IMG/VR virus record: IMGVR_UViG_3300045988_057942
DNA: 64,000 nt
DNA from: a virus
Reading direction: 5' to 3' (one strand)
The position numbers and the translations under genes are program-made. The notes beneath the pieces are model-generated. The model saw only the letters and a list, made by a program, of their open reading frames with translations, had not been told where the DNA came from and ran no database searches. Below, one piece after another: positions 17,320 through 64,000 of this stretch (positions within the stretch are counted from its first letter, which is position 1; every line of letters begins with the position of its first letter).

Positions 17320-17369
17320 GATTGTGTGATGATTATTAGCTAGGTTTGACTGACTAATTCAAGCCTGCT

Positions 17370-17392
17370 CCATCCTCTACGGGGAGTATAGC
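17370..17392 (+). repeat. GC-rich repeat copy (ccatcctctacggggagtatagc), intergenic, flanked by imperfect 10-bp inverted repeats ttagctagg / cctagctga.
   Basis: Core match. Confidence 0.9.
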
Positions 17393-17527
17393 TTGCCGAA
17401 TTTGGCTAGTTTTAAGCCTAGCTGATTAGTTATACACGATTGAATAAAAGTCTTACTGTAAGCCTAAAAAGTGGCTCTATGGACGTACATAAATATTTAC
17501 AATATTAAAATTTAAAATAGTAAAGTT

Positions 17528-17869: not shown

Positions 17870-17950
17870 TTAAAAAATGTTAATAATATTGTTAAACTAC
17901 TTGTTATTAATAATATAATTTATATTTGTAACAAACTAAATTCTAAAGAT

Positions 17951-40595: not shown

Positions 40596-40641
40596 AATTA
40601 ATCGAGCAAATATAAAAGTTGCTTAAAACGAAAGAAAACAG

Positions 40642-40688
40642 CCTCTATGACGATGTAATTAAATTTTACTTTACATTAGTCATAGAGG
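40642..40688 (+). other. 10-bp perfect hairpin (cctctatgac / gtcatagagg) with a 27-nt loop, between the two giant genes. Possible transcript-processing or attenuator site.
   Basis: Seen directly. Not followed by a clean T-run. Confidence 0.4.
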
Positions 40689-40725
40689 TATTACTATTAA
40701 TGAATTTAAACTTAAATATAAACTT

Positions 40726-52700: not shown

Positions 52701-52938
52701 TGGTACTACTGCTATGGCTGCTAGATTTCTTATTGAAGAAGACTTTACTGAGGAATATACTACTGGTAGATATAAAGGTATGAATAAGTTTGAAGTTATG
52801 GCTGTTCGTAATATACCTGTTGTTCGTAGTATTAATCGAGTTCTTGATTTACCAAATAATAATAGTTATTATAAACTTGATGAAAATATACTTAGTATTA
52901 TACCTTATAAAGATATAGCTAAAGATATATTTGAATAA
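40726..52938 (+). CDS. Giant 4070-aa protein, candidate virion-packaged multisubunit-like RNA polymerase of crAss-like phages (DFDVD metal-binding-type motif at ~aa 1430).
   Basis: 'GYRIPTEGKQS...VVPDEWVTQTGSDFDVDSVYG' resembles the DxDxD of RNAP beta' double-psi beta-barrels. Giant proteins with this motif are typical of Crassvirales. Carries 4-5 GC-rich repeat copies. Confidence 0.8.
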   Translation: MSCGNIKLVGYNNLNNVIIKEHGSNNADYYSLIAMVEDPIFKKIVADKGINVKTSGRQAYNALLEARAIKLRNMDDIASVAEKEERGLFSTIKARDTAITYMADIMNKLSFNFLYNGAPLNFNEIKKRTNETVINAGLKRAKKLAGSDETRNNELNSFINNPNPAIKINGLGAFLRKYGNAQDFNYGALLRSLTNTEFNEALFNNKNVAKLIKRDELYQTTDYEELGGYLDETFTEGDENSIDDGIDLMTQLWNLSIGEVKDFNKHVEEIIKYHLASLPKLTAASQLDNGSYPFDTNNELGVVTFSDANYLSKILYASADTSNVDNFIASLKRISETIPNCECLIQLHDLLSKNKVFANKYMMVFNKPIISKIETYIQTDSNGNSYVRARVTNPNTDSRTILQNTFYNNVKNNIITNRVPSAREKFRIYDRYKNTPHANLYLYDAFKEIFPDINQASFNLAIAKIGRIAMANNLINFANVINRTVENYNKYVEALKKDKRTKMPDSFINRGDTSIIYQMADVFKDIIYIPVELNSRNPEGNLSSDVINRSFITNIAKIINDDKSTVEEQNAMVEAYAKQKFASHQYDYSNLLLEHRDSNGNIINYGLFRRVGNGTPKLTEYARSMFKTSLLNGISELDNNNNDLYRSMSDGDYLITAMGLFMTDINNSETPTANYLLPIPSDAPKNFTITAPRYSLAGLRSQLEDGTKIINREHPLFKQYYNIVIQELTNMAQAVNVMFKTNANGNPILTNGDFEFSDTYNNKPEHFYNQYHKDGKDNVFTTKDGHKVLAGRVFSFKRLASKITPNSNGAFNELIGYGKTIDILYGGSTRGLSYVNNQVVLNAEQRIALEDAVADWLNEYITNGYKELKNKYGTFIDDRINNESLAEFLVNDYLVRDSMYDMYGGDQSFYKNGQAILKRIKEVQASGNPFGNTDFTKNDLDIATNLYDVTINGNAITVPYTVNGVVKRKKVVLQDKFRGVTIYNTFKSSDKVVIDRLDDQLKKAGLDKKDRERILEPFKGGVNANDAQSYITLEEWIRRITAAGELDKYAGLIQSLTDDTPIDKIDWNKFANKVQIQKNFYYDLYYDTTVGIEVPRQVKNAEFVLIPKLIKGTELEKVYNIMTNRGIHQLNTVETVKVAQHNRMTLWNNDGVLTDKALKEFDDNVFDNSELFSYNYLYRQQEVPQHMVDASNKAAIQIMKKMLDNLPNKPELNDLKNKVFNNYVANIRNSFEKTCAELGIGLDDNGHIDLNSNGTIKNLNRFVFFDRFKENAQQQGVEKAFLEFFDLDSAGFNNLPLFLSNINSKLESIANSYFNTNITRQLISGWHAAQLSDFGFKVDKQTQTDSKLQYKKIGEVDGTPVYYTEIKLPRWSSKLKGLNIEQVPDSLRTMIGYRIPTEGKQSICIMYVKEFLPDAYGSTVVVPDEWVTQTGSDFDVDSVYGMSKTFNLVKGVPTEITHARYTKDEVGYINYVKDNVDKASRKILGKTYNKQGNIRASLKNSEDAINATLEGYNGNLKVVEKIANDGGLKSYESYLKLPVEDTSSQAARTNAIIQSFIDILNNPAAFEENTTTSNFENVKEANETYAEIVGANKTTVAPSDFFTQLDWFDAATSGIKLKGISVNRDTFMSIGNVTKANHSEGIKVMYTTDVISEQEAVNRYGKENVETIGNKHIRITHKNFGWSGDDKNVDGYLINPYSSQTTAHILDVMKEGAIHNENTYTFNAFKTIVDFGSNYDTAIGFMWQPAIDILVRKWKETNSVLAEGTKNPLTEAIREVAHNLGFGEKVNFAGRKKLIDIINESYGETFKKLFNLSVSEAFSSPNLIFSSDAYKSRLRGEMNGVQQALFDLYVLAQFNRLNSIGQDISNNLNILSADKYGAKQSFYASDKVFRDARTVIENSNIYAPSSTGGQTLLLESVFPDISGGIDAFIKSDISKSSYPSLAAFLQMSTALSVKATQQVFETANPVFIDYVYRIAEWTKGGIMTEKLYNDYKDYLINKLEVGNNGSSYLNLPVTVVNGDFVHPKYIKEYGTGQSRALEVGRVSGTLVNIKTDDVVVKNIFEPTQTEIDVFARLTPAQKVDWIKRNFSQDGSIFAHIEIVANDERNNRRNVNIQYINYIQGDITNDEAHRLFDRAWNHPNPLIKLAALDLVKYAFIVEGHKFRTRNISRLISNTPLRGLSDNGIAIGDIAMKGINNYGFIDKDNVEDIIGFIRKNYNSFNCPSYTFKRLTNNKINYSLKRSGIITFNGQENLDNVGIIRNGDAVNVIRINKNLYIKGTYDGTLAYYPIDRLESFETYNSIEPSIIANNNIHKPLAVLLYEGLTQQEKRDKFIDGIKDNINEAINKGYKEVPELYGKYISDEYFQPFMNTPFENNTIYTINDKFYLNINGTTAINLSDDLQQYKAKYPNIEDSKLGLFIEINENEIDRVTSNTDRYSSVDDQTPIGRFAKNASLIISRAVRHGQPAAQNVLNALNNAEINYLDSSSLSDNSEFSLSVIANYIDVEANNILNDINRFIKIDGIDKPINDKDVIGKVLKDEQLQNRFLDVILSANTFKNKYKLISEIDIDSTNLDDKTKENIRKIQKLVNQVDSNTTVHSARKDWFERWIQLRTTNPNYISGLMKEFDAYGDTGFMDYWIQDIRANRNFVLQNILKDVMGTVEEGRLNGIKEANDFRNYLKELKSRATKDGKSVSLDSIIDDDGRLIQPNNPIWEEKIKKYRDAAIEAEQKFGINSVEHLIALSNKAKFIDMTTIHQLKPITVQDEDGNDVTIEYSTYIINLERSLLGLKKGDDGIPKEFAEYKRLNGRIRDILSQATDNVTTQSQDEELGRIYAQMDSLTSLYDEDGNKKIGHDLNVAERLRAYQTNIRKVKEMFYDKQAKEGFDSKLKEQLSIISKYESQRDANGNLLISMEELMKVPEYREAKEWIRKNTRYILDIKDIEDLNWAFEELKDANKGNSVLNLAIREFQAKDEFNVVDGRKIPEERAALIKAETVRKYKYTKGNGIPYVGIIRSAEDELRIYRADFYNYLTGNKSKSEEEINVGEAINKILEKYFDNATRTLNTADISQEDLEQLKTGFEVFNEITRGEKSVDKAKAKRVAEFIESECDVTYNWKQYELDKNRAFAKGKKYYDKWLEVFSEQVEENGTIAERPNRTIYGIIKPKDLDKWTDIDKTAAINILQKRTRETTTQYYYIKEKEVLDKYGIDSPEYKQWYRDNHYFDPYTRTIKPIRIWTTMQMIKDDGSAVVGNYEPRINQMHITPKEELINPEYSSFVNKYKVGTGYDNPNYTNLNEYQLELMNKVNELMKKYCFTNSNKRYVDMGYLPALPKSKDMTVKDYFEQALSFLGWTANVPNNTSWRNNEDLTFDKDYDIPNPRLVQLVNKDTQQLPTIPKFKEPNESDEEFSKRKAAAIKARDEIIEKNNKIHNDILNRNWEEVFNSFLIESNRYNAIKTVKNLLYTADQIITSNTAYDINYKGSISENREASAGGEIEYKQEKQTRTSEHLRSFIRRLVFEQYKDNKIPNLVKLGSLAQNIAGSKYMMMNITGGIANVLTGSSNIFMERAAGEYINLKDWEAGKSEWIKGTVSYMANMYSENSSTLQDAIIKLSHVVDFDRVTEVSTAEGLKENIRRVRGLLFSPQSVGEHYMQNVMLFAMLKSHRLVDNGRGGYDIMSKEMYHRKAEQDALMSVINTPRGGENQALLEQFNKFMDEAKADNKKRAKYNLFKANPIFDFVKTYLNEEQQREYIAKRKELIKNIDKEFAKLPDIYNQFELKDGIAQIKSDSKLTLKEYAKFIDKVREVNKKVHGVYDKLGSANIEQHWWGGTVMQYHKHLYPGFKKRYRWNGYYNETLGTIEKGSYTSLYDYLTIPFKETNVGEINNVSDVLKAFQTYGKNLLSFAVNFKLNYELLPEHEKANIRRNLGDLLYVGAAIIGAIAITGIGGDDDESIMYNLMLYHADRLASEAASFTPFGAYAEGKKLWSSPVAIGQTINDLLGTTAMAARFLIEEDFTEEYTTGRYKGMNKFEVMAVRNIPVVRSINRVLDLPNNNSYYKLDENILSIIPYKDIAKDIFE
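43201..43223 (+). repeat. GC-rich repeat copy (catcctctacggggggtctacac), in-frame in 40726-52938 (ILYGGSTR), in a third frame.
   Basis: Core match. Shares the 'gtctacac' tail with copy 2139. Confidence 0.9.
45333..45349 (-). repeat. GC-rich repeat copy, reverse (actccccgtggaggata), in-frame (LPVEDT).
   Basis: Core reverse complement. Confidence 0.85.
46435..46453 (+). repeat. GC-rich repeat copy (ccatcctctacggggggtc), in-frame (APSSTGGQ).
   Basis: Core match. Confidence 0.9.
47242..47263 (-). repeat. Degenerate reverse copy (actccccttagaggattgagcg), in-frame (TPLRGLS).
   Basis: 16 of 18 core match plus 'tgagcg' tail as in copy 54082. Confidence 0.45.
51793..51807 (-). repeat. GC-rich repeat copy, reverse (actccccgtggagga), in-frame (TPRGG).
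   Basis: Core reverse complement, truncated. Confidence 0.75.
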
Positions 52939-52964
52939 GCTGGACTTGAACCTAGTAAAAAATA

Positions 52965-53010
52965 AGGGCTTGCCTATGGTATCACTACCTAGACAAGCCC
53001 TATTTGTTTT
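52965..53010. terminator. Bidirectional rho-independent terminator between convergent modules: stem agggcttg / caagccct, followed by atttgtttt on the '+' strand and a T-run on the '-' strand.
   Basis: Seen directly. Located between the stop of 40726-52938 (+) and the stop of 53023-53577 (-). Confidence 0.75.
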
Positions 53011-53022
53011 AACATTAATAAC

Positions 53023-53577
53023 TCAATCATCAAGAATAATACGTTTTTTATCATCAAGAAAACCAACCATACCATCATATTTATCATGATAAATCTTAAT
53101 AAAATCAGTCATACTACCTCTAAATATATAATTATGATTAACAACATAAGTAGATTTTTTAGTAGTATTAATAATTACTTGTTCGTTATAAAGTTCATTT
53201 AAAGCAATATAAAAAGTTTTTGAATCAATATGAGCATAATTCGTTATATCACTTTCAGTAAAAGTAATTTTATTACTACACCATTTAATATTATTACAAA
53301 TATAACTAATAATAGCAATACTACCTTTATTAAGTTTAATAAGTTTAGAACTTAATTCATTACCAAATGTAACATATTCACGATTAGTAATAGTTTTCTT
53401 TGTAAGTTTAAAAACAGTATTAAGTGTTGCTAGACTATCAGTAATTTCTCTATCCTCTGTTGTAACTTCAATATTATACACAGTAGGAGCAATATTTTTA
53501 GCAACTTCATTAGCTCTTTTAGAATATATATCTCTAACCTTTTTAAGAGCTTTACTATCAAATGTAACTCTAGTCAT
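53023..53577 (-). CDS. Hypothetical protein, 184 aa. First gene of the '-'-strand module.
   Basis: ORF. Confidence 0.7.
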   Translation of the reverse strand: MTRVTFDSKALKKVRDIYSKRANEVAKNIAPTVYNIEVTTEDREITDSLATLNTVFKLTKKTITNREYVTFGNELSSKLIKLNKGSIAIISYICNNIKWCSNKITFTESDITNYAHIDSKTFYIALNELYNEQVIINTTKKSTYVVNHNYIFRGSMTDFIKIYHDKYDGMVGFLDDKKRIILDD

Positions 53578-53726
53578 AAAAACAATATTATTTAGATTAT
53601 CAGTATGACAAATATAAATATTATGTAGGAAAAAACGGAATGATTAATGTTAAAAAAGTGTAACTATCTTCCAATTTTCGGAAGTAAATATTTTTGTAAT
53701 TAATTGATAATCAAGATATTACAAGC

Positions 53727-53754
53727 GTTCTTCTATCTATATAGATAGAAGAAC
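53727..53754. promoter_or_regulatory. Perfect 28-bp palindrome gTTCTTCTATCTATATAGATAGAAGAAc. Candidate operator.
   Basis: Seen directly in the intergenic region between 53577 and 53787. Confidence 0.5.
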
Positions 53755-53786
53755 AGATAGAATCAATATTTACTATTAGCAATATC

Positions 53787-53969
53787 TTAATTAAAACCAT
53801 CATCATTATTACCAATAACACACATAAGAATAACAAAAACTATAATACCAATAACAAATAGTTTTCCACTATACTTATCCATAGCTTCACTATCACTAAT
53901 ATTATTAGCAACTGCCAATAGTTTAACACCACCAAATATAATTCCAAGAAGAACAATAAATGCAACCAT
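53787..53969 (-). CDS. Small membrane protein, 60 aa, with two hydrophobic helices.
   Basis: MVAFIVLLGIIFGGVKLLAV...LFVIGIIVFVILMCVIG. Confidence 0.5.
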   Translation of the reverse strand: MVAFIVLLGIIFGGVKLLAVANNISDSEAMDKYSGKLFVIGIIVFVILMCVIGNNDDGFN

Positions 53970-54081
53970 AATTATAATATATTTAAGTTTAACAATAAGA
54001 TAAAAATAAACCTCAGTAGTAAGACTAGCTTATCTACCGAGGTTTCAGTCATGCCAACGACTATAAGTTTAAGGATTAGTA

Positions 54082-54123
54082 GAACGCTCCGCTTCGCTAC
54101 GCTCAACTCCCCGTGGAGGATGG
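54082..54123 (-). repeat. Extended reverse copy (gaacgctccgcttcgctacgctcaactccccgtggaggatgg). Left arm of the intergenic inverted pair.
   Basis: rc = ccatcctccacggggagt + tgagcgtagcgaagcggagcgttc. Confidence 0.9.
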
Positions 54124-54200
54124 AATAGACTAGTATTCATTCAATCAATATAATCATTATTATTAATAACTATACTAATATTACTAGCATAACTACTATT

Positions 54201-54252
54201 CCATCCTCTACGGGGAGTATAGCGAAGAGTGCGTAGCACTCGTAGCGGTTCC
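54201..54252 (+). repeat. Extended forward copy (ccatcctctacggggagtatagcgaagagtgcgtagcactcgtagcggttcc). Right arm of the inverted pair. The pair encloses a 77-bp AT-rich core (MITE-like unit 54082-54252).
   Basis: Seen directly. Confidence 0.9.
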
Positions 54253-54335
54253 AAGCTAATCATTAAATTTAATAAAGCCAGCTCTATTAGAGCCAGCTTT
54301 ACGTATAACATATAAACCATTAGCATTAATACTAT

Positions 54336-54785
54336 TTACTTCTTTAGTCCATATTTAGCCCATTGAAGAACAAATCCAAGACCTTCCCAAATTTTATCTT
54401 CAGCTTTAATTCGAGCGTAATTAGCACCAACATTTAAATCAAAGTTTTCAGGTTTTACACAAGCTGCTTGACCATGAACTTCAAATCCAGTAAGACAAGT
54501 AAGAGTAGTATTAGTTGTTTTAGTACCAACTTTTACATTTTCAATACCTTTAATAAATCTTTTAATATCATTTTCTTTAAGAACATCTCCAGCAGGGTCT
54601 TCAAGTTTATAATAAGCTTTCTCAAACTCTTTAGCAGGACTCCAAGATTTATATCCATCTGGATAAGTTACTTCATAACCCATATCGTCAGGATGAGCAT
54701 TACCAATTTTATAACCTGCACTCAAAGCCATAGAAGCTCTCATAGGAGTAGCTTCAATCATTTTAACTCCAATAAATTTAGCCAT
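54336..54785 (-). CDS. Hypothetical protein, 149 aa.
   Basis: ORF. Confidence 0.7.
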   Translation of the reverse strand: MAKFIGVKMIEATPMRASMALSAGYKIGNAHPDDMGYEVTYPDGYKSWSPAKEFEKAYYKLEDPAGDVLKENDIKRFIKGIENVKVGTKTTNTTLTCLTGFEVHGQAACVKPENFDLNVGANYARIKAEDKIWEGLGFVLQWAKYGLKK

Positions 54786-54804
54786 AATTTTAAAATTTAA
54801 TTAT

Positions 54805-54954
54805 TTATTTAATAGTAGTAGTAATTATTACAAATCTATCATCTACCGGTTCAACATCAATAGCCTGAAATTCTTTATATTCAGTATCTTCAACTAAAAC
54901 AAGTTTATCTTCATCAAATTGTTGAAGTTTATCTATAAGTTCTTTAACTGTCAT
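54805..54954 (-). CDS. Small ORF (49 aa, MTVKELIDKLQQFDEDKLVLVED...), not in the track. Paralogue of the next small ORF.
   Basis: Found by reading the '-' strand in a gap between track ORFs. N-terminus is shared with the neighbour. Confidence 0.4.
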   Translation of the reverse strand: MTVKELIDKLQQFDEDKLVLVEDTEYKEFQAIDVEPVDDRFVIITTTIK

Positions 54955-54969
54955 AGCTTTAAAATTTAA

Positions 54970-55092
54970 TTAATCACTAACTATTATAACTTCTCCACAA
55001 TTATTACTATAATCACATACTTCATCAATAGAATTAATATCACCATTATAATCAATATATACTATTGATCCTTCATCGCAAGTTTTAAGCAT
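54970..55092 (-). CDS. Small paralogous ORF. Homology starts at 'TTVKELIEMLKTCDEGS...' (55113), where ACG replaces ATG. First in-frame ATG is at 55092.
   Basis: rc of 54970-55113 reads 'TTVKELIEMLKTCDEGSIVYIDYNGDINSIDEVCDYSNNCGEVIIVSD*'. Confidence 0.3.
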   Translation of the reverse strand: MLKTCDEGSIVYIDYNGDINSIDEVCDYSNNCGEVIIVSD

Positions 55093-55119
55093 TTCTATAA
55101 GTTCTTTAACTGTCGTAGT

Positions 55120-55398
55120 TTATTCTTTTTCAAGTTTGTTAATAATATCTTTAATATAATCACTAGGAAAACTACCTTCAAGTCGAGCTAATTCTTTTCT
55201 TTTATAATCATTATCGACTTTAGTAATAACAGTAGTAGGAAATTTAGTAATTTCTTTTCTTAGAATATCATCTAGATTTGTATTACGAATATTAAGAGTA
55301 ATATCACAATTAGCTTCATTAATAGCATCAGTTATATTTTTAATTGCTATTTTACAAGCATCACAACCATCTCTAGTAAAACAATCAATACGTATCAT
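55120..55398 (-). CDS. Thioredoxin-fold (glutaredoxin/NrdH-like) protein, 92 aa.
   Basis: N-terminal 'CFTRDGCDACK' CxxC-type motif. Size and position next to nucleotide-metabolism genes. Confidence 0.5.
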   Translation of the reverse strand: MIRIDCFTRDGCDACKIAIKNITDAINEANCDITLNIRNTNLDDILRKEITKFPTTVITKVDNDYKRKELARLEGSFPSDYIKDIINKLEKE

Positions 55399-55988
55399 AA
55401 CACAATAGCATTATTTTTAACAGCTTCTTTAATAGTATTAGGAACTCTAAGAAGAGTATTCTTAATCATTTCAGTAGTAAGACTATCAGAATATACATAA
55501 GTAGCATAAGTTCTCCAACTATCTTTAATCACAATAGCAAACTTATTCGGATTATCAATATTAGTTTGAATATATTCTACTTTAGTATTCTGATATTTCC
55601 ACATCCAAGCAATAGCATCAGCACATTTAGCACGAGTTATACAATCATGTTCATCAATAAACGCTTCAACAAATATATTATTTGTTTGTCTTGTAGGTTC
55701 ATCTCCAGTAAGATAATTAATATCATTACGAAGTTCTTCCCAAGTAACAGAATTACTATATCGTTTATATTCTGTATCATCTCGATATATAATACAAGTA
55801 GGATATTCAGTAATATTCTTACCAGCAACAGCCTTTTCAAGTATCATATCTTCAAGAATAAGATGGTCAGGAAGATTTTTAAAATTACATTGAACATTAG
55901 TACCAAATAAAGCTATATCAATAGCTTCTCGCATAGCTTCTGTTTTATCTTTATCAGCACTTTTATAATAAAATTCAATTTTAACCAT
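55395..55988 (-). CDS. Hypothetical protein, 197 aa.
   Basis: ORF whose stop overlaps the downstream start. Confidence 0.7.
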   Translation of the reverse strand: MVKIEFYYKSADKDKTEAMREAIDIALFGTNVQCNFKNLPDHLILEDMILEKAVAGKNITEYPTCIIYRDDTEYKRYSNSVTWEELRNDINYLTGDEPTRQTNNIFVEAFIDEHDCITRAKCADAIAWMWKYQNTKVEYIQTNIDNPNKFAIVIKDSWRTYATYVYSDSLTTEMIKNTLLRVPNTIKEAVKNNAIVL

Positions 55989-56057
55989 AGTATTCGTATA
56001 ATATAATGAGAATTTATAAAATTAGCTATTTTAAAGCCCTACATTGAATGATATTCA

Positions 56058-56123
56058 TATCGTGATAGATTAATCACAATGATAATTAAAATTCAATATA
56101 AGGCAAAAGAATTATATCTATGA
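56058..56123 (-). promoter_or_regulatory. Conserved ~66-bp non-coding element, copy A (TATCGTGATAGATTAATCA-N3-TGATA...AAAATTcAATA.A.GGCAAAAGAAT...TCTA.GA). Candidate promoter/operator for gene 55395-55988.
   Basis: ~85% identical to 61976-62042. Contains the palindromic GATTAATC core with flanking TGATA half-sites. Confidence 0.55.
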
Positions 56124-56387
56124 CTATTCTAACAGCTTGCGAAGATACCTCCGAAAAGTGTAATCACTTTGTAAACCACGTAGAACATAACCATTACAGT
56201 AAGCAGCAGGAGCATCACTAATACCAATACTACGCGCTTCTTGTCTACCAGTATCAGTATATAGATTATGCCTAATAAGATTAAACCTACCGGCAAACTC
56301 AGGTAGAGCAAGAGCTTTGTGAAGCCTTTCTTCAAAAAGTTTACTAACATTACAATCAGGTAAATAAAACAAGATTAACTTTTTCAT
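56124..56387 (-). CDS. Glutaredoxin-like thioredoxin-fold protein, 87 aa. Monothiol.
   Basis: 'KLILFYLPDCNVSKLFEE' resembles the Grx N-terminal active-site region. Confidence 0.45.
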   Translation of the reverse strand: MKKLILFYLPDCNVSKLFEERLHKALALPEFAGRFNLIRHNLYTDTGRQEARSIGISDAPAAYCNGYVLRGLQSDYTFRRYLRKLLE

Positions 56388-56600
56388 AGATAAACTTCAT
56401 TACCTTCAACTTTAGCATCACTAAAATGACTTTTAAAACTTTCAACACTTCTACACCATAAAGGTTCAAGTCCATTAAGTTTATAAATAACAGCAGGAAT
56501 CCATTCACCTGTATCTGGATGTTTCATTTTAGTAATACTAATAATTATATATTCATTAGACGTTTTATTATGAATATAACGAGCACCAACTTTAAGCTTT
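56384..56600 (-). CDS. DUF1653-like small protein. The track ORF extends to 56701, overlapping dUTPase, so the true start is probably internal.
   Basis: 'GARYIHNKTSNEYIIISITKMKHPDTGEWIPAVIYKLNGLEPLWCRSVESF' fits the DUF1653 pattern G.Y.H.K...Y.V....H..T.E..V.Y..L......W.R....F. Confidence 0.45.
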
Positions 56601-57260
56601 AGCTGCGCCGCCTGTTCCTTTTCCAAATCCTTTGTTTCCACGTTCAGTTTCACCAAGTTCTTCAATAGAATTAACTTCTTTCCAAGTAATACGTTGAGCA
56701 CTATTAATAATTAATTGTGCACATCTATCTTCTCCATTACAATCATAAGGAGGAATAGAAACTTTAGCAAGAATATTAGTCATTGTAGTTCTAACACTAT
56801 TAAGTTTAAGTCTAGAATTACCTACCATACTATCAGGTAAATGCATATGTTGTCTAAGTTTATCAACTACTTCAACAAGGTCAGATACAGCATGAATTAA
56901 ATCTCTAGAAGTACGATTCTTAAAAATAATAAGAAGTTCTCCACGATAACCCCAATCAAGAGTACCAGGTGTATTTGGCATATAAAAATCAGATTTAGTA
57001 AGATTACTTCTAGGACGGAGAGCCATTTCGTTAGGATTACCATCATCATCATTACCAATAGCAAATGCTAAACCAGTATGATATATAAATCTATCTTTAG
57101 TATTATCATATTCACAGTGTATAGGATAAATATCCATACAAGCATCACCTTCTTTACCATAAACAGGTAAAATAGGTTGAACATTACAATACTGTTCTAC
57201 ATCTACAACATCTCCACTAAGAAGTTGAATTTCTTTTAGCTTAAATACTTTTATTTCCAT
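56592..57260 (-). CDS. dut: dUTP diphosphatase (dUTPase) with an insertion.
   Basis: Motifs 'LRPRSNLTKS', 'DWGYRGEL', 'RCAQLII' and C-terminal 'ERGNKGFGKGTGG' correspond to dUTPase motifs 2-5. Confidence 0.65.
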   Translation of the reverse strand: MEIKVFKLKEIQLLSGDVVDVEQYCNVQPILPVYGKEGDACMDIYPIHCEYDNTKDRFIYHTGLAFAIGNDDDGNPNEMALRPRSNLTKSDFYMPNTPGTLDWGYRGELLIIFKNRTSRDLIHAVSDLVEVVDKLRQHMHLPDSMVGNSRLKLNSVRTTMTNILAKVSIPPYDCNGEDRCAQLIINSAQRITWKEVNSIEELGETERGNKGFGKGTGGAAKA

Positions 57261-57279
57261 ATATAATTAAATTATTAAA

Positions 57280-58341
57280 TTAAAGAGCTTCTGCAAGTGC
57301 AAAAGCATTTTCTATTTTTCTTGATTTATCACCATAACAAATACTATCAAATCGCTTAGTACCTTCAATATTATCTATATTAGAATAATATCCACTAACA
57401 GCATTAACAGCTCCCCAAGCAGTACCTAAAATATCTCTTTGACCAGGACCATCAAAATAATAATTATAAGTATCAGAAATAACATTCATTTTTCTACTAC
57501 TTATTTTACTATCAGATAAAGCTAAACCATTACGATAAGCAATATCTTTAATAGTATGACCTGTATCTTTTAGACGTTGAATTTCATCACTAGTAAGAAG
57601 ATTTTCTCCAATAAATTGAATTACATCTTCATCAGTAACTTTAATATTAGCAAGTAAATTACAATATTGACCAAATTCTTCAGATTTAATTTTACTAATT
57701 CCAAGTATTTCTTGTGCAACAGAAATCTTATTATGAACACTAGTTGTATGTCGAAAACTAACATAATTACTACTAGTACGAATAGCAGCATTAAGAGTAT
57801 TTTGACAAATAACTCTAATAGGAGTAAATAAAATCTTAACTCCGCCACTACCATCATGAGTATTAGTAAATACTAGATAATTTTCAACAGGGTCACCTTT
57901 AACAAGAATATTATTAGGAAGTTTAGCACTTACAAATATTCTCTCACCATTTCCCCAAAATCCAGCAGTTTGCCAAATAGCAGAATTTTTACCAATAGCA
58001 TCATCAAAGAAATTAAAAGCATCATTGTTTTGTACAATAGTATATTTACTTTTAACAACACCTAAAGGAATATTGTAATCAGTACGATAGGTAGCAAAGG
58101 CGTTATCACACTTACGATAAATGTCAGTACCAAAAACATGAGCGCCTTCTTTTTGTTCTTTAATAATTTTATCAAGTTCTTCATCAGTTCCAGTAAGTTT
58201 AATAGGCATTTTACCAACTAGTTCACATTTAGCTACATTAAAATTAAGTCCAGCTTTAAGCATAACTTCTTTAGCAGTAGAACAATCTGATACATCAATA
58301 GCACCAGAATAAGCCCAAGGTTTACCTTTAACTTTATACAT
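57280..58341 (-). CDS. Phage protein, 353 aa. Possibly DUF932 family.
   Basis: Size, position and overall sequence pattern resemble DUF932. Assigned by eye only. Confidence 0.35.
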   Translation of the reverse strand: MYKVKGKPWAYSGAIDVSDCSTAKEVMLKAGLNFNVAKCELVGKMPIKLTGTDEELDKIIKEQKEGAHVFGTDIYRKCDNAFATYRTDYNIPLGVVKSKYTIVQNNDAFNFFDDAIGKNSAIWQTAGFWGNGERIFVSAKLPNNILVKGDPVENYLVFTNTHDGSGGVKILFTPIRVICQNTLNAAIRTSSNYVSFRHTTSVHNKISVAQEILGISKIKSEEFGQYCNLLANIKVTDEDVIQFIGENLLTSDEIQRLKDTGHTIKDIAYRNGLALSDSKISSRKMNVISDTYNYYFDGPGQRDILGTAWGAVNAVSGYYSNIDNIEGTKRFDSICYGDKSRKIENAFALAEAL

Positions 58342-58523
58342 TAATTATAAGTTTTAATATATTCAATAATACGTTCAATATCTCTAATAGCTTGACTGTT
58401 AGTAACTCCATAGGTATCTATATACCATTTAATTACTTCTCTTACTTTATCTTCTAGTTCCATAATTAACAAGATTAGTAGTGTTGACTCCCCGTAGAGG
58501 ATGGAATGCACATCATCCTCCAC
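58341..58523 (-). CDS. Small hypothetical protein. The track start is GTG inside the GC-rich hairpin; an internal ATG (MELEDKV..., ~58460) is the likelier start.
   Basis: ORF. Its N-terminus overlaps repeat copy 58514-58533. Confidence 0.4.
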   Translation of the reverse strand: MEDDVHSILYGESTLLILLIMELEDKVREVIKWYIDTYGVTNSQAIRDIERIIEYIKTYN

Positions 58524-58533
58524 GGGGAGTATA
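58487..58533. repeat. Inverted pair of GC-rich repeat cores (actccccgtagaggatgg - aatgcacat - catcctccacggggagtata). An 18-bp stem hairpin with 1 mismatch between two '-'-strand genes.
   Basis: Seen directly. Confidence 0.9.
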
Positions 58534-58539
58534 ATTTAG

Positions 58540-59322
58540 CTATTTAATAATAAGACTAGTATTTTCGACAAACTTAGCAATACTAATATCTCTACCATTG
58601 TTAAGAATATTTTTCATAGTAGTTTTATTAACAGAACTACTTCTAGTCATTTCATGTTGATGATTAAAGAAAGTATTAATCAAATCAAAATTAGCTTTAT
58701 TAGCTAAATCACCGATAGGTTTTTCAATTTCAAATTTAACTTTAATACAATCTAAATCATCAAGAGTAAAATAACCTCCAGTTTCTTCTTTAAGTTTAGC
58801 AGATTGCTCAGGATAATTTATAGCAAATTTAGCATTAATATTATCAAGCATAATTTCTCTATTAAACGATTCAACATCATCATTAATTAAATCATTATCC
58901 CAAAGAGTTTTAAAATGGTCTAATACTAAATCTATAAATATTTGATTAAGACTTTCATCTACTTCAACACATTTACTATTTCTAGTATAAAGTTTACTAT
59001 CAATCAAATCAATAGACCTATTACCAGATTCACCTAAATTGCCATAAGTAATAACAGCATCAAGCATAACACTTTTAAGTCTATTAGCATGATTCTCTTT
59101 AGTTTTACGAAGAACAGCTAATCGTTGCTCTTCTTTTTTACAAGATTCAGCTTCAAGATTAAGTACAGTATATGCTTTACGATAACTATCAAGTTTGGAT
59201 TTAAGACTTTCTTGTGTAATAGCGAGGCGTTCTTCAAGTTCAGGAGTTAATTCACCTCCATTTTCTTCTAACTCAAGAAATATATCCTCAAGTTCAGCAG
59301 TAATATTATAAATATTTGCCAT
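58540..59322 (-). CDS. Gp157-like (Siphovirus Gp157 / Gam-like) coiled-coil protein with a C-terminal extension.
   Basis: N-terminal 'MANIYNITAELEDIFLELEENGGELTPELEERL...KKEEQRLAVLRKTKENHANRLKSVMLDAV' is typical of this family. Confidence 0.45.
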   Translation of the reverse strand: MANIYNITAELEDIFLELEENGGELTPELEERLAITQESLKSKLDSYRKAYTVLNLEAESCKKEEQRLAVLRKTKENHANRLKSVMLDAVITYGNLGESGNRSIDLIDSKLYTRNSKCVEVDESLNQIFIDLVLDHFKTLWDNDLINDDVESFNREIMLDNINAKFAINYPEQSAKLKEETGGYFTLDDLDCIKVKFEIEKPIGDLANKANFDLINTFFNHQHEMTRSSSVNKTTMKNILNNGRDISIAKFVENTSLIIK

Positions 59323-59573
59323 TATTTTCTACGTTTAGGTATATTATAAGCAGAACGATAATAAGGATTTAAATAACCAAATAAATGAGTATAATCACTA
59401 GCAGTCATTTTACCTGTATTAGTTCTATATTTATAAATAGCTTCAGTATATTTCTTCCATAGTTTTTTACTTAAACCAAGATTACCAACAAATCCACCAT
59501 TTTCAAATACAATAGCTTCTGTATTTTTAGTAGTTCTAAAACGGTTATTAAAACCATAAAATCTTCTTCTCAT
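59322..59573 (-). CDS. Hypothetical basic protein, 83 aa.
   Basis: ORF with ATGA-type overlap to its neighbour. Confidence 0.5.
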   Translation of the reverse strand: MRRRFYGFNNRFRTTKNTEAIVFENGGFVGNLGLSKKLWKKYTEAIYKYRTNTGKMTASDYTHLFGYLNPYYRSAYNIPKRRK

Positions 59574-59600
59574 AACTTTAATATTTAAATAGTTAATAAT

Positions 59601-59882
59601 TTATTTATTATTTCTCATTTCTTCATCTTTAACTACTTTAAGAACAACAATATTACATAAAAGACCATAACAAAGATAATTGTTAAATACACAATTAGGA
59701 CAAGTTTCAATATGTTTATTTTTAACATATTTACATAGAAATGTTACTTCTTTATCATCTTTAATTCTAATTGTAGTATAAAGAAATTCTTCACCATCAT
59801 TTAAATCATCAGTGAAATTAGTACCACTATAATTTTCAATATGAAAGTGTTTAAGTTTATCAATCTCTGAAGTCATATCCAA
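59601..59882 (-). CDS. Hypothetical Cys-containing protein, 93 aa.
   Basis: ORF. 'CPNCVFNNYLCYGLLC'. Confidence 0.5.
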   Translation of the reverse strand: MDMTSEIDKLKHFHIENYSGTNFTDDLNDGEEFLYTTIRIKDDKEVTFLCKYVKNKHIETCPNCVFNNYLCYGLLCNIVVLKVVKDEEMRNNK

Positions 59883-60726
59883 GTTCCATTAAATTATTTC
59901 TAATCATACCAGCTATAATAATACAATTAGGATGAGGAGTACCAGTAGTACCATAATAACGTAAATCAATAATATGACGCCATTCATTAATAGAATATGT
60001 ATAGACACATCTAGTAGCAGTATCAAGAGGAAGAACGCCACGAGCATCTTGACGATGCATACCAAATTCATCAATAAGAGCTTTATAATTAAAAAAACTA
60101 TCATTACAAGAATTAATATAATGATATGCTTTTTGATGTTCTATATTATCATCAATCCAATCAGCAAATAAAGGCTCTTCATTAAAATGTGTAGCAATTT
60201 CATCACTCATCCAATGAGGTCTACAAATCGTTCCATCTTCATAAACATAACGAGTTGATTTTTCAGCAATATTATTAGGACTAACACGATTTAATTCACG
60301 AGAAGTACTAATTTGTGTATCAACACAAAAAGTATATCTCATCATATTAAATCCTATTTCAGTATTACAAAAATCTTCAATAGGAACAATATATTTAGAT
60401 AGATAACCAAATTGTGTTTTATGGTCTAAAACCCAATTACCATTAACAGTTATATAATAAACATGTTTTTTATAATCATAACTAAAACCAATAGTATTAG
60501 CATAATTAATAATAATAGTTTCTAAAGTTTTATCACTATCATTAGCAATCATATAATAAGTTCCATGACGAAACATACTCCAATGTTCATCATTAATAAG
60601 TCGTTTAATAGTAGCTTCATCATTACCACTTTCTCTACCATAACAAACTCTTGCGCATCTAGCAACATGAGCTTTAGAATCATTTCCTTGTTGCCAAAGT
60701 TCAACTTTAGGTTCAATTATTTTCAT
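59860..60726 (-). CDS. thyX: Flavin-dependent thymidylate synthase, ThyX-like.
   Basis: N-terminal 'AHVARCARVCYGRES', central 'TSRELNRVSP...STRYV' (a divergent RHR/S motif region), C-terminal 'ARGVLPLDTATR...NEWRHIIDLR'. Confidence 0.55.
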   Translation of the reverse strand: MKIIEPKVELWQQGNDSKAHVARCARVCYGRESGNDEATIKRLINDEHWSMFRHGTYYMIANDSDKTLETIIINYANTIGFSYDYKKHVYYITVNGNWVLDHKTQFGYLSKYIVPIEDFCNTEIGFNMMRYTFCVDTQISTSRELNRVSPNNIAEKSTRYVYEDGTICRPHWMSDEIATHFNEEPLFADWIDDNIEHQKAYHYINSCNDSFFNYKALIDEFGMHRQDARGVLPLDTATRCVYTYSINEWRHIIDLRYYGTTGTPHPNCIIIAGMIRNNLMELGYDFRD

Positions 60727-61096
60727 CTTCTTGATTATTATAAAAATCTTTAACTACATTTCCAAATATACTATAAAAATGTTCTTTAGGTATAATATTA
60801 ATAGGCTGTATAGAATCAAGCTCTTTAAAAAATTCTTTAAGACCTTTATTTCTAATCCATAAAGTATCATAAGTAGCAGTTATATAATTATCTTTATCCA
60901 TGTCACAAGCTATAAAGCAAGTTTCACTATCAAGCTTATCTATACATTCTTTACATACAATAGCCTCAGCTATTTGTTTACTCTTACTAGCATCTTCTTC
61001 AACAGAATTTCCAAGTGGAGTATAACCAATAATTTTACCACAACATATACAAACTCTAGCAAGAGCATTTATACCAAAAATAGGATGTAATTTCAT
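60713..61096 (-). CDS. Zn-finger-like Cys-rich protein, 127 aa.
   Basis: 'CICCGK...CKEC...CFIAC'. Confidence 0.55.
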   Translation of the reverse strand: MKLHPIFGINALARVCICCGKIIGYTPLGNSVEEDASKSKQIAEAIVCKECIDKLDSETCFIACDMDKDNYITATYDTLWIRNKGLKEFFKELDSIQPINIIPKEHFYSIFGNVVKDFYNNQEDENN

Positions 61097-61839
61097 ACCA
61101 TATAATCAGTTACAAATTTAAGAACTTTATAGAAAAGACCAACAAGAGTACCAGTATTATCAATAACATAATCATCTTTATTAATTGTTATTTGTTCACT
61201 TTCGTGACTTTCATGATTATCATTACTAGATTTTCTATCTACTCTAATTATCATTCCTCCACAATCTTTAATAGCTTTACATTCATCATTATCAAATCTA
61301 GCATCAGCTATAATACATTGTCCTTTACTATTTCTTATATCAAATGCTTTATTCATAGTATAACGAATAAAAGCTTCTCTCCAAAAATGATTTCTAATAA
61401 TGTTAGTACCATAATATTGAAGAAGAACTCTAATTTTAATACTAACATTATTATTATATAAAACAAGATATGAGGATAAGTCATTATATTTTAATATAGC
61501 ATCATTACATTTATCCACAACATAAGTAGCATCTTTAATATTAGTAGAAACAATACCAGTTTTAAAATTATAATAATTTTCTTCTTTAACATCTTGTCTA
61601 TCTAGAAGTTTACGGTCAATACCACAAAATTCAGATATATCATCTTTAAGTTTATCAGCAAAATGAATAATTATTTCATCATTTTCGATAAAATCATTTT
61701 TATGATAAAGAAGCCAAGTATCATAACTAGCTTTCATAATACCATCATGAAGGATATAACTAATCATAGAAGCAACTGTATCTTTACCACTTCCTTTAAA
61801 TCCTTTAATACCAACAATAGTAACTTTATTAATACTCAT
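61093..61839 (-). CDS. Deoxynucleoside monophosphate kinase, T4 gp1-like. The track ORF extends to 61965; the start is probably M43 (MSINKV...).
   Basis: 'GIKGFKGSGKDT' matches T4 gp1 'GVKRSGKDT'. C-terminal 'SSNDNHESHESE...VIDNTGTLVGLFYKV' matches gp1 'SNDTHITEAG...VITNDGSLEELFSKI'. Confidence 0.7.
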   Translation of the reverse strand: MSINKVTIVGIKGFKGSGKDTVASMISYILHDGIMKASYDTWLLYHKNDFIENDEIIIHFADKLKDDISEFCGIDRKLLDRQDVKEENYYNFKTGIVSTNIKDATYVVDKCNDAILKYNDLSSYLVLYNNNVSIKIRVLLQYYGTNIIRNHFWREAFIRYTMNKAFDIRNSKGQCIIADARFDNDECKAIKDCGGMIIRVDRKSSNDNHESHESEQITINKDDYVIDNTGTLVGLFYKVLKFVTDYMV

Positions 61840-61975
61840 AATAATTTGTTTTTGTTTATCAAGACAAATATAAAAATATAATAGGAATTTACTAGTAATA
61901 ATGATGCTGAATTTAATGTTAAATATCATGGTGAGAATGACGCATTTTAAGGCTTGCCATGACACGCAAATCTTA

Positions 61976-62042
61976 TCGTGATAGATTAATCATTCTGATA
62001 TATAAAATTGAATACAGGCAAAAAGAATCATGTCTACGAGCG
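61976..62042 (-). promoter_or_regulatory. Conserved ~66-bp non-coding element, copy B. Candidate promoter/operator for the dNMP kinase gene.
   Basis: Aligns with 56058-56123 at about 56 of 66 positions. Confidence 0.55.
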
Positions 62043-62065
62043 TATCATATACAATTTTACACCCA

Positions 62066-62109
62066 TGTAAAACAGAAAAGCCTAGCACACTATCTTATGT
62101 ACTAGGCTT
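62066..62109 (-). terminator. Terminator for gene 62114-62497 ('-' strand): stem aagcctag(c)ac / gt(a)ctaggctt followed by cttttctgttt on the '-' strand.
   Basis: Seen directly. Confidence 0.55.
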
Positions 62110-62113
62110 CACC

Positions 62114-62497
62114 TTATTCAATATCTATATGATAAATAATACAAAAACTATTACGTTCTTCTACAAACTTAACATTAATATTAAAATCATCTTTAGACAT
62201 AACAAAAGCATTACGCAATCTTGTATCGAGAAGTCTAATAACTATATTAGGAATATATAACTTAAATCCAGTATTAGCATCTCGAATAATAGGAACACTA
62301 TTATTAATTCTATTATCATTATACAAAATCACATAAAGTTCATTACTTTTAGTTATATCATTATATCTAACAGCAAAATTATAACTTTTAGCATCATAAT
62401 CAGTAAATAGAATAATAGATTTATAATAACAACTAAAATAAGATTTAGTTCTATCAAAATTATTATTCTTAATTACATTATAATCTAGTATCTCCAT
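62114..62497 (-). CDS. Hypothetical protein, 127 aa.
   Basis: ORF. Confidence 0.6.
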   Translation of the reverse strand: MEILDYNVIKNNNFDRTKSYFSCYYKSIILFTDYDAKSYNFAVRYNDITKSNELYVILYNDNRINNSVPIIRDANTGFKLYIPNIVIRLLDTRLRNAFVMSKDDFNINVKFVEERNSFCIIYHIDIE

Positions 62498-63704
62498 TTA
62501 TAACAACAGTTTTAATATGAAATGGAACTCTAGAAACACCACTCCGTTCACCATATTCTATATGAACAGTTCTACCAATATAAGATTGAGAATCAAATAA
62601 AACTTCTTGCTGAACAATATGACTAGTGCTTAAACGAGTTTCAAACTTTTCATTATTAATATCATTTTTACAAAGAAGAATAGGTAAATCACGTTTCTTT
62701 TCTTTATAAATATCAAGAATGATAAAATCTCCCTCAGCAGAATCTTTAAACTTCTCCATATAATTAGCTCTACGTCTACCATATTGATAATCAGTTTCAG
62801 CATTACGAAGTATAAGACCTTCAAATCCTAAATTAATAAAATGATTTCTAGCGTCAATAGCTTCATTATCATTAGTAATATATCCACTAGGAAGAATAAT
62901 CAATCGTTCTTTATTATTATAATGTTCTTTAATATTATTAAAGCAAGTAGGAAGCTTAATATGATAACGATATGTATTTCTATGAGCTTGATTACCTTCC
63001 ATCATAATATCATAACACCAAAACTGAAGAAGTTTATTTTCAACACAATTAGCATCTTTAACAAAATGATTAATTTGATTAACAGTATAACCGGGAAGAT
63101 AAACTTCACCATCAAGTGCTGCAAATCCATTAATCATATCGTCGATAATATTTGTATTAATAGTAGCAAGCAGATAATCTTCAAGATAGCCAAGAGTATG
63201 CCAAGTAAGACCTTCACGACTTTGGAAACGAAGCCTAACAGGTTTAAACATATCATTTTGAGTATAAGCAGTAACAATACAACGCAGACCATTAATCTTA
63301 TACTGACCATACATACAACTGACTTTTTTCCAAACATTACCATTATACGTTTTAGCAAGCATTGGAAGTAAAAGATTACTGTTTCCATTACTAAGGTCTT
63401 TAGGTAGATAAGTATTTAGAAAATTAAATAGAGTATCATTATCTCCATCCTCCACGGGGGGTAAACCCTGCATATCACAAAGTTCATTAAGATATGTATA
63501 TCCTTGTTTAATCTTATCATTATATCTACTTTCAAGTTCTTTTTGACCATCTTTTTGAGTAACAGCATAAACTTCTTTACGAATATTACCTCGAACAAGA
63601 CCATAAAAAACAGTGATACTATTAGTACCACTGTCAAGTTCAGCCCACCAAACAGTAGGCACACCATTATTATTTCTACGATAAAGTTTATTCATTATGT
63701 TCAC
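62478..63704 (-). CDS. ATP-dependent polynucleotide ligase (DNA/RNA ligase-like nucleotidyltransferase).
   Basis: Motif I-like 'KINGLR', motif III/IV-like 'ALDGEVYLPGY' and 'EGLILR', motif V-like 'KFKDSAEGDFIILDI'. Confidence 0.5.
   Translation of the reverse strand: MNIMNKLYRRNNNGVPTVWWAELDSGTNSITVFYGLVRGNIRKEVYAVTQKDGQKELESRYNDKIKQGYTYLNELCDMQGLPPVEDGDNDTLFNFLNTYLPKDLSNGNSNLLLPMLAKTYNGNVWKKVSCMYGQYKINGLRCIVTAYTQNDMFKPVRLRFQSREGLTWHTLGYLEDYLLATINTNIIDDMINGFAALDGEVYLPGYTVNQINHFVKDANCVENKLLQFWCYDIMMEGNQAHRNTYRYHIKLPTCFNNIKEHYNNKERLIILPSGYITNDNEAIDARNHFINLGFEGLILRNAETDYQYGRRRANYMEKFKDSAEGDFIILDIYKEKKRDLPILLCKNDINNEKFETRLSTSHIVQQEVLFDSQSYIGRTVHIEYGERSGVSRVPFHIKTVVINGDTRL
63444..63461 (+). repeat. 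GC-rich repeat copy (ccatcctccacggggggt), in-frame in ligase gene on the opposite strand (LPPVEDG).
   Basis: Core match. Confidence 0.9.
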
Positions 63705-64000
63705 TTATTTTTAAACCATTAAATGCAAAACTAACAGCTTTACCACCTAGAAGTTTAGCTTTACGCTGAGCAATCGTTTCCTTTTTAGGCTTAATAGCCT
63801 TTGCAATACCGGTGCTAACATCAATGGGTTTACCTGTAAAGACATCTTTTGATTGATTAACTCTGCTAGCACTTCTAGTGCGTTTCCTTGGTTCTTTACT
63901 ATAATATCGTACTGGGTTTCTTCTCTCGAAATCAAGATTTTTTTCATGTATATCAATAATTCTTTTAATAATACTATTACGATAATCAATATAACTTTGA
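63691..64000 (-). CDS. 3' end of a '-'-strand gene entering from the right edge. Open frame with no stop and no ATG in the window, ending '...KAVSFAFNGLKISEHNE*'. Basic, K/R-rich.
   Basis: rc of 63691-64000 translates without stops. More plausible than the 80-aa track ORF in another frame. Confidence 0.45.

Follow-up and report, generated by a model that had tools for sequence, protein, structure and literature searches.

Two similar intergenic segments in a 64,000-nucleotide (nt) stretch of viral DNA (IMG/VR record IMGVR_UViG_3300045988_057942, hereafter the window) are, by sequence comparison, copies of a family of ~115-nt non-coding cassettes that is specific to crAss-like phages of the Crudevirinae. 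The cassettes, designated here copies A and B, stand with others of their kind before blocks of replication, nucleotide-metabolism, and virion RNA polymerase (RNAP) genes, and one conserved antisense copy faces the portal and terminase genes. No virus of the human gut is more abundant than crAssphage. Almost nothing is known of its transcription control, and the promoters mapped so far in the Crassvirales are all middle promoters of host type, from a marine relative. The cassette is a conserved, unannotated, nucleotide-defined candidate for what crAss transcription recognises; the literature that we searched contains no description of it, and no record annotates it.

Cassettes at conserved gene junctions

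The window belongs to a ~93%-identical relative of prototype crAssphage (Carjivirus communis) and runs in the orientation reverse to BK010471.1, the reference used here. An initial annotation of the window had described the two segments (56058-56123 and 61976-62042) as a ~66-bp duplication, ~85% identical, with each segment upstream of a metabolic gene on the '-' strand. Both segments are present and intergenic, and each does lie upstream of a '-'-strand gene. Their similarity is real, with 55 of 68 positions identical (81%) in the true register, in which the second segment begins 2 nt earlier and spans 61974-62040, and it reaches well beyond 66 bp, to ~111 nt (56021-56131 versus 61937-62047, 73% identity). 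The two segments share an exact 19-mer, TATCGTGATAGATTAATCA (56058-56076 and 61974-61992), which has no other occurrence in the window even when three mismatches are allowed, against 0.06 expected; none of 100 shuffled sequences reached 2. The pair is not a simple duplication, since the window holds a third copy, D, and the crAssphage reference genome holds five (copies C, B, A, D, and P; Table 1), which we found with short-word BLAST and a profile hidden Markov model (HMM). Motif searches also recovered copies in related phages, including at least 4-6 in Delmidovirus. Full-length identities are 73% between A and B and 64% between A and D and between B and D. The profile search of the window returned no other significant copy beyond A, B, and D; sub-threshold matches at 104-167, 17391-17471, and 40597-40656 were not counted as copies.

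Scans of IMG/VR yielded 84 crAss-type copies with the exact core described below, together with types E, F, and G, and then H, I, J, and variants, from other phages. (A scan with CGTGGCGAGCCTTAAAA mostly returned an unrelated coding family.) On the gene-sense strand, the parts of the unit follow a single order: an A-rich GTAAAA(T/A) block in several types, ~20 nt, a 5' block, the 5' arm of a stem, ATTTT, 12 nt of variable sequence, the core GATTAATCTATCACGA, a spacer of exactly 25 nt, and TTAAAA(T/C). The 5' block has the consensus yrTAGAyAyrATTCTTTTGCC, and the stop codon of the upstream gene usually lies inside or abuts it, as does the gp37 stop codon (56124-56126) that adjoins the 5' block of copy A. 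The core is 16 nt long, and columns 42-53 of our alignment A3 are invariant. At +25 from the core, the hexamer is TTAAAA in 64 of the 84 crAss-type copies and AAAGAA in the other 20, all of type C, and the hexamer stands at that position in none of 29 unrelated matches to the same 16-mer. Six different second halves of the core are found with the anchors GATTAATC-N30-GCyTTAAAA, no indel has become fixed between blocks, even across unrelated intervening sequence, and in B, E, F, and G the GTAAAA(T/A) block lies upstream at a constant 62-63 nt. The core, the spacing, and TTAAAAT are all retained in copies B, G, and P, which have no outer stem, suggesting that the sequence blocks function without the hairpin. 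The distance from TTAAAAT to the ATG is 21 nt both in type F (the confirmed start, ATG 9298, of a 962-amino acid [aa] gene) and in the type E cassette of genome L022 (the ATG of a short open reading frame [ORF]). Neither the fixed 25-nt distance to TTAAAAT, nor the hairpin-forming inverted repeat, nor the third window copy, nor the conservation across genera figured in the initial annotation.

In every genome compared, the copies are intergenic and co-directional with both neighbouring genes, the portal-side copy being the antisense case in three lineages: crAssphage (copy P), Delmidovirus-type phages, and the E/G phages (type I). Copy D lies on the DNA strand opposite A and B, yet it is in sense with its flanking genes, as A and B are. 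Two Delmidovirus species and unclassified gut contigs carry the element at the same gene junctions. Between a ~281-aa gene and a ~960-aa gene, after a ~1150-aa gene, lie type F and the first Delmidovirus copy; this is the gp49-gp48-D-gp47 position, and for this reason we regard D, which lacks TATCACGA and with it half of the core, as orthologous to an element with a full core, but degenerate. Copy B has its orthologs in type H and the fourth Delmidovirus copy. The crAssphage copies precede gene blocks: C the helicase-to-ligase block, B nucleotide metabolism, A gp38 to RepL, and D the gp47-gp44 virion-RNAP block. The genes downstream of types E and G vary. Mobility of the kind seen in miniature inverted-repeat transposable elements (MITEs) or Correia-like repeats was ruled out: with only 64-73% identity within a genome, and with positions and orientations that correspond as orthologs between Carjivirus, Delmidovirus, and the E/G phages, the copies have not been recently mobile.

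A stretch in the window at 40590-40700 (+), in the gap between the gp45 homologue and the gene for a 4070-aa RNAP, contains ATTAATCGAGC...GCTTAAAAC followed by a 10-bp hairpin (CCTCTATGAC/GTCATAGAGG), has sub-threshold similarity to the element (E=0.59), and carries a perfect TATATTTG on the opposite strand at 40607. It is possibly a decayed or divergent relative of the cassette.

An inverted repeat around the core

An inverted repeat of 10-22 bp encloses the core in most types, with loops of 41-45 nt. Compared with shuffled sequences, the fold is significant in A (z=-4.85), C (-7.4), D (-3.8), E (-4.0), F (-3.8), and A' (-7.1), but not in B (-0.3; more exactly -0.34), G (-0.8), J (0.0), or P (-1.5). 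Copy A folds at -29.7 kcal/mol, with z=-4.85 on the sense strand versus -1.84 on the other, and copy D at -28.9 kcal/mol. All stem-bearing types pair in a single register, i+j=10 counted from the first base of the core (in D, with two more bases in its loop, the sum is 8), and in-register pairing covers 17-22 of 27 positions in most variants, compared with at most 15-19 in other registers, save for one tie in type E. The stems themselves pair at 14 of 14 positions in A and A', 19 of 20 in C, 10 of 10 in D, and 13 of 13 in both E and F; copy B, with 10 of 27 pairs in the family register, has no outer stem. In an ungapped alignment of 50 sequences, 67% of cells are paired, versus 36-47% when the partners are slid, and compensatory changes on both sides distinguish the types at columns 18-74 (UA/UG/CG), 21-71 (UA/GC), 23-69 (AU/CG), and 26-66 (UA/GC). 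A shuffle control for covariation was marginal (33/500), because independent lineages are few and B and G are unpaired.

These data are consistent with a cis-acting structured RNA, which we consider unlikely overall but which is the main rival of the promoter reading given below. The cassette would lie within long polycistronic transcripts, probably those of the virion RNAP, and would fold into a long hairpin with the core at its apex, which could serve as a processing or stability site, like the RNase III sites of T7, or as a protein-binding site for antitermination or translational control, like lambda nut and HK022 put. The strongly non-random outer stem of six types, the one register with its both-side changes, the better folding of the sense strand in window copy A, C, and F, the sense orientation of four of the five copies, and the upstream stop codon within the 5' block all argue for such an RNA. 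However, B, G, J, and P keep the sequence blocks without a significant fold, the covariation control is only marginal, and the strand bias is not significant: sense-only G.U pairs outnumber antisense-only A.C pairs 8:2 (p=0.11), a tally that does not decide which strand or molecule folds, and D, A', and the Delmidovirus F-type copy fold alike on both strands. RNA stems also seldom show such rigid, indel-free spacing, three lineages have the portal-side copy in antisense, and copy B lies downstream of a terminator. The cassette matches no Rfam family; Rfam 15 gave no match at the gathering threshold in the whole window and no relevant match at E<=1 in 52900-64000. Should the cassette nonetheless prove to act as RNA, phages would have a new RNA motif, one whose 16-nt loop is unusually invariant.

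The stemless copy B might form a local hairpin with TTAAAAT in its loop (79% paired versus 20-52% when slid), without covariation (104/500) and with an RNAalifold energy of only -2.4 kcal/mol. A small hairpin that resembles such TTAAAAT-in-loop hairpins, GAGCC-TAAAAAGT-GGCTC, occurs beside a UACG hairpin at ~17341-17480 (+), in the gap upstream of the zincin-protease gene; its profile match is not significant (E=1.1). We also considered an intrinsic terminator inside the element and rejected it: a scan found none in A, B, or D, and the stems are followed by CTTTAAAAT with no T-tract.

Transcription signals and the proposed role of the cassette

Host-type promoters appear to be present in the window, separate from the cassette. 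The only experimentally mapped promoters in the Crassvirales, the middle promoters of phage phi14:2, consist of an A-tract, TTTG, ~20 nt, and TAnnTTTG (Drobysheva et al., 10.1101/2020.03.07.982082). Boxes reading tTATATTTGt, which are likely promoters for the host RNAP, lie 23-32 nt upstream of ATGs at 17921-17928 (+; the gene after the zincin protease), 53609-53616 (-; RepL), and 61865-61872 (-; deoxynucleoside monophosphate [dNMP] kinase). Because the phi14:2 middle promoters match these boxes, unlike the cassette, we conclude that the cassette is not of host type. No TAnnTTTG box is conserved in it, the candidate position (A3 columns 29-40) being its least conserved stretch, and no host-type -7 box occurs on the sense strand in the gaps that contain A, C, and D. 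A scan for sigma-70 promoters gave matches no better than those in shuffles, and a sigma-54 or sigma-70 reading of the 3' half was rejected by eye for its unfit spacings.

The initial annotation had proposed a Bacteroidetes sigma-A promoter (-33 TTTG and -7 TAnnTTTG) with a TGATA operator, which in this specific form we regard as highly improbable. TTTG is indeed conserved in the 5' block, and window copy A has TATCATTG, one mismatch from TAnnTTTG, 19 nt downstream, but nothing is conserved 19-21 nt beyond TTTG; reference copy A reads TGTTATTG there, and B, C, E, and F have no match. The boxes originally assigned, TTTG and 'TATATTGA', are ~4 nt apart rather than ~19-21, the second TGATA half-site falls in a variable stretch and is kept only in A and B, and the true host-type promoters, here and in phi14:2, look different. 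What survives is the general idea of a shared cis-regulatory signal, which is still the leading explanation.

The gap that contains copy B places the two kinds of signal side by side. It reads, in sense order, gp25 stop codon, terminator, GTAAAAT, 5' block, core, TTAAAAT, 71 nt, TATATTTG, 25 nt, ATG. The stemless copy is thus the one already behind a terminator, and the gene downstream of it also has a host-type box. Behind the conserved zincin-protease gene, the element is present in Delmidovirus and an E/G phage, and crAssphage has a TATATTTG box 23 nt before the ATG; that the element and the host box alternate at this junction suggests that they are functionally equivalent. Genome-wide, the element occupies 5 of ~40 gaps, host-type -7 boxes ~10, and CCTC-UACG-GGGG hairpins ~9.

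The reading that we favour, tentatively, is that the cassette is a phage-specific promoter/operator module that opens transcription units and is combined with a hairpin. The 16-bp core would be bound by a sequence-specific factor: either a protein, encoded by the phage or delivered with the virion, or the polymerase that carries out the transcription. Exactly 25 bp separate the core from TTAAAAT downstream, which would act as a -10-like element with initiation a few bases further on. In most copies the inverted repeat wraps the core, its 3' arm taking up the otherwise unconstrained 25-bp spacer, and the hairpin may attenuate or end transcripts arriving from upstream, or may help to open the DNA. 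Rigid spacing across unrelated spacers is typical of protein-DNA recognition. A promoter is further suggested by the conservation of the sequence blocks in stemless copies, by the alternation with a host-type box at the zincin-protease junction, by the position of the cassettes before functional gene blocks, by the intrinsic terminator that precedes copy B, after which re-initiation would be needed, and by the 21 nt between TTAAAAT and the ATG in type F and the L022 type E cassette, close to the 23-32 nt of the host-type boxes. The antisense portal-side copy also favours a promoter over a cis-acting RNA, as it is easily explained by an antisense or early transcript and is hard to reconcile with an element that acts within the message.

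Several observations weigh against this interpretation. Copy C lacks TTAAAAT and has an extended stem instead, copy D lacks half of the core, and type G and some type E cassettes read TTAAAAC, a poor sigma-70-like -10. The sigma-70 scan finds nothing above chance, the gene behind copy B already has a host-type -7 box, and in the type E cassette of genome L041 the ATG lies only 9 nt past TTAAAAT. Finally, compensatory changes in the stem indicate selected base pairing, for which a plain double-stranded promoter has no need.

If the cassette is a phage promoter, which polymerase might use it? In phi14:2, the replication module belongs to the early class and is transcribed by the virion RNAP, and no common promoter motif was found (Drobysheva et al., 10.1101/2020.03.07.982082). 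By analogy, the module that contains A, B, and C may be transcribed by the virion RNAP. The cassette could then be the missing early promoter of the crAss-like virion RNAP, a narrower proposal that we rate as rather improbable. This enzyme needs a single-stranded template in vitro, and the literature searched describes no promoter motif for it. The core and TTAAAAT would be recognised, and the inverted repeat would extrude as a hairpin and open the DNA, possibly with the help of virion-packaged IHF-like proteins. The mechanism, if so, would be convergent with that of coliphage N4 and built on an unrelated polymerase.

Two further explanations depart from promoters altogether. Each copy could be the gene for a ~110-nt small RNA, the copies being siblings whose 16-nt core serves as the seed for a host or phage target. 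Such RNAs would fit with scaffolds that vary and compensate around a core that does not, and with placement independent of orientation (as at P), which is natural for free-standing genes; the GTAAAA(T/A) block 62-63 nt upstream could belong to their promoter. Moreover, phi14:2 makes abundant early non-coding RNAs (Drobysheva et al., 10.1101/2020.03.07.982082). (In the phi14:2 genome, a 1.7-kb non-coding stretch at 2905-4601 yields these RNAs, and the earlier ORF calls there have all been withdrawn in the record.) We nevertheless consider sibling small RNAs quite improbable: the 3' end has no terminator, stop codons of upstream genes overlap the 5' end, D lacks the seed, the window contains no complementary site at up to three mismatches, and no Bacteroidales genome contains the core 17-mer. 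Matches to the 17-mer were mis-binned crAssphage contigs or unrelated singletons, which also rules out a chromosomal core copy in the host as the object of operator mimicry or as an RNA target. Metagenome-assembled genomes labelled Clostridiales, Mycoplasma, Clostridia, Chitinophaga, and Atlantibacter contain whole or partial 89-98 kb crAssphage contigs, i.e., binning contamination.

The cassette could also act as DNA, outside transcription, as a single-stranded priming or ssi-type site or a secondary origin on the lagging-strand template, as a MITE-like repeat that has been domesticated, or as a hotspot of recombination. Such roles would suit a long, imperfect hairpin whose loop is conserved, and if replication begins near the RepL-proximal origin that PMC10983915 proposes, the strand that folds better is predicted to be the lagging-strand template. 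The alternation with a host promoter at one junction and the variable genes downstream of types E and G fit them as well. Yet the copies are found at the same, orthologous junctions in different genera, with identities of only 64-73% within a genome, copies without a stem are conserved, no copy lies near the predicted origins, and lagging-strand priming would need more than five sites per 97 kb. A DNA-level role of this kind therefore seems quite improbable to us as well.

Surroundings and known systems

Table 1. Cassette copies, their parts, and adjacent features. Positions are given for the window; reference positions (ref) refer to the crAssphage genome.
Feature	Window position	Strand	Ref position and junction	Remarks
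Copy C	outside window		~5.0 kb, gp09/gp10	
Copy P	outside window		86.1 kb, portal/gp75	
Copy A, whole element	56021-56131	-	26.4 kb, gp37/gp38	profile HMM E=4e-22 / 2e-22
Copy A, 5' block TCATAGATATAATTCTTTTGCC	56102-56123	-		common to A, B, C, and D; recognisable in types E-J
Copy A, stem 5' arm GCCTTATATTGAAT	56091-56104	-		14/14 pairs with 3' arm (12 Watson-Crick + 2 G.U)
Copy A, core GATTAATCTATCACGA	56060-56075	-		contains 8-bp palindrome GATTAATC; exact in 84 crAss-type IMG/VR copies
Copy A, stem 3' arm ATTCAATGTAGGGC	56036-56049	-		register i+j=10: 20/27 pairs versus <=17 in other registers
Copy A, TTAAAAT box	56028-56034	-		exactly 25 nt 3' of core
Copy B, whole element	61937-62047	-	19.6 kb, gp25/gp26	profile HMM E=9e-25 / 1e-26; no outer stem
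Copy B, core GATTAATCTATCACGA	61976-61991	-		
Copy B, TTAAAAT box	61944-61950	-		25 nt 3' of core
Copy D, degenerate	29771-29883	+	52.8 kb, gp48/gp47	gap between gp48 and gp47 homologues, upstream of virion-RNAP gene block; profile HMM E=1.2e-5 / 2.8e-7
Copy D, 5' block	29780-29800	+		
Copy D, stem 5' arm CTCTGTTGGA	29801-29810	+		10/10 pairs with 29856-29865
Copy D, ATTAATC	29833-29839	+		
Copy D, stem 3' arm TTCAACAGAG	29856-29865	+		partner of 29801-29810
Copy D, TTAAAAT	29870-29876	+		
Intrinsic terminator after gp25	62077-62110	-		immediately 5' of copy B, outside element; 14-bp stem + T-tract; 1 found versus 0.1 expected
Host-type -7 box TATATTTG	61865-61872	-		outside element; 25 nt before dNMP kinase ATG
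gp38 homologue	55395-55988	-		197 aa, function unknown; downstream of copy A
dNMP kinase gene	61093-61839	-		PF21448, E=1.5e-15; ATG at 61839; downstream of copy B
gp47 homologue	29913-32159	+		downstream of copy D

Copies A and B both lie within the replication/nucleotide-metabolism module, A between gp37 (a truncated thioredoxin) and gp38, and B between gp25 and the dNMP kinase gene. The label 'metabolic' holds for the kinase; it is unsupported for the gp38 homologue, whose product matched no family in a Pfam search, and gp38 is known only from this species in the phage collection searched. Nearby, the dUTPase gene (56592-57260, -) is uninterrupted in the window, and gp34 of BK010471.1 has an intron with an HNH endonuclease gene, which accounts for part of the ~700-bp difference in alignment length.

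The UACG hairpin is a second repeat of the window. Its sequence, ~ATCCTC(T/C)ACGGGG(G/A)GT, forms a tetraloop-type CCTC-UACG-GGGG hairpin and occurs in at least 10 copies, some intergenic and some within long ORFs such as that of the 4070-aa RNAP. Copies lie at 2138, 8360, 12581, 17369, 23883, 30869, 43189, 46434, 58512, and 63444 (+), and an inverted pair (54097-54128 / 54196-54227) makes up a 124-nt palindrome near RepL, the source of sub-threshold Rfam microRNA matches on both strands. In the portal-side element of Delmidovirus, GATTAATC is fused directly to a UACG hairpin. Elsewhere, tandem in-frame coding repeats lie in genes of the tail/BACON-domain type at 8958-10829 (+; period ~318 nt) and 5299-6139 (+; ~75-150 nt), in agreement with BACON repeat expansions already published for crAssphage.

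Coliphage N4 delivers an RNAP with its virion, and its promoters combine a conserved sequence with an inverted repeat, in few copies upstream of early genes. The crAss-like cassette shares this combination and the small number of copies, in phages whose virion-delivered RNAP likewise needs a single-stranded template in vitro. The N4 hairpins, however, have 5-7-bp stems and 3-nt loops and form on the template strand, whereas the stems of the cassette are 10-22 bp, its loops are 41-45 nt, the template strand is never favoured, and B, G, J, and P have no stem; the polymerases are also unrelated. Like the cassette, the phi14:2 middle promoters are multi-block motifs upstream of virion-RNAP, IHF, and portal-neighbour genes, but they are of host type (A-tract, TTTG, ~20 nt, TAnnTTTG), and the cassette has none of these parts. 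Lambda nut, HK022 put, and the T7 RNase III sites resemble it in occurring as few intergenic copies in sense orientation, with a linear block followed by a covarying hairpin. Those sites depend on their hairpins, unlike the cassette with its conserved stemless copies, antisense copy, and rigid spacing to an AT box. Judged from its sequence, the cassette does not have the features that define N4 hairpin promoters, intrinsic terminators, Rfam families, or MITEs.

In kind it comes closest to the PeSL cassette that T4-like phages carry, an intergenic unit of ~100 bp that is repeated, in which a stem-loop (terminator or attenuator) is combined with an early promoter and an AT-rich tract, and which is conserved and in sense orientation, with different genes following it in related genomes (PMC2839356, PMC4122927). 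The two differ in several respects. Promoter and terminator activity has been measured for PeSLs, and the crAss-like cassette is known from sequence alone; the PeSL promoter matches the host sigma-70 consensus perfectly, and the cassette matches no host consensus; the PeSL stem-loop stands beside the promoter, and the inverted repeat of the cassette encloses its core. For recombination between copies, the cassette offers indirect hints: its alternation with a host promoter at the protease junction and the variable genes that follow it. PeSLs are also numerous and clustered in hyperplastic regions, in contrast with the 5-6 copies of the cassette at module boundaries that are conserved across genera. 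Both the PeSL and the crAss-like cassette are repeated, conserved intergenic units in sense orientation, and the latter likewise carries a stem-loop in A, D, C, E, F, and A', but not in B, G, J, and P.

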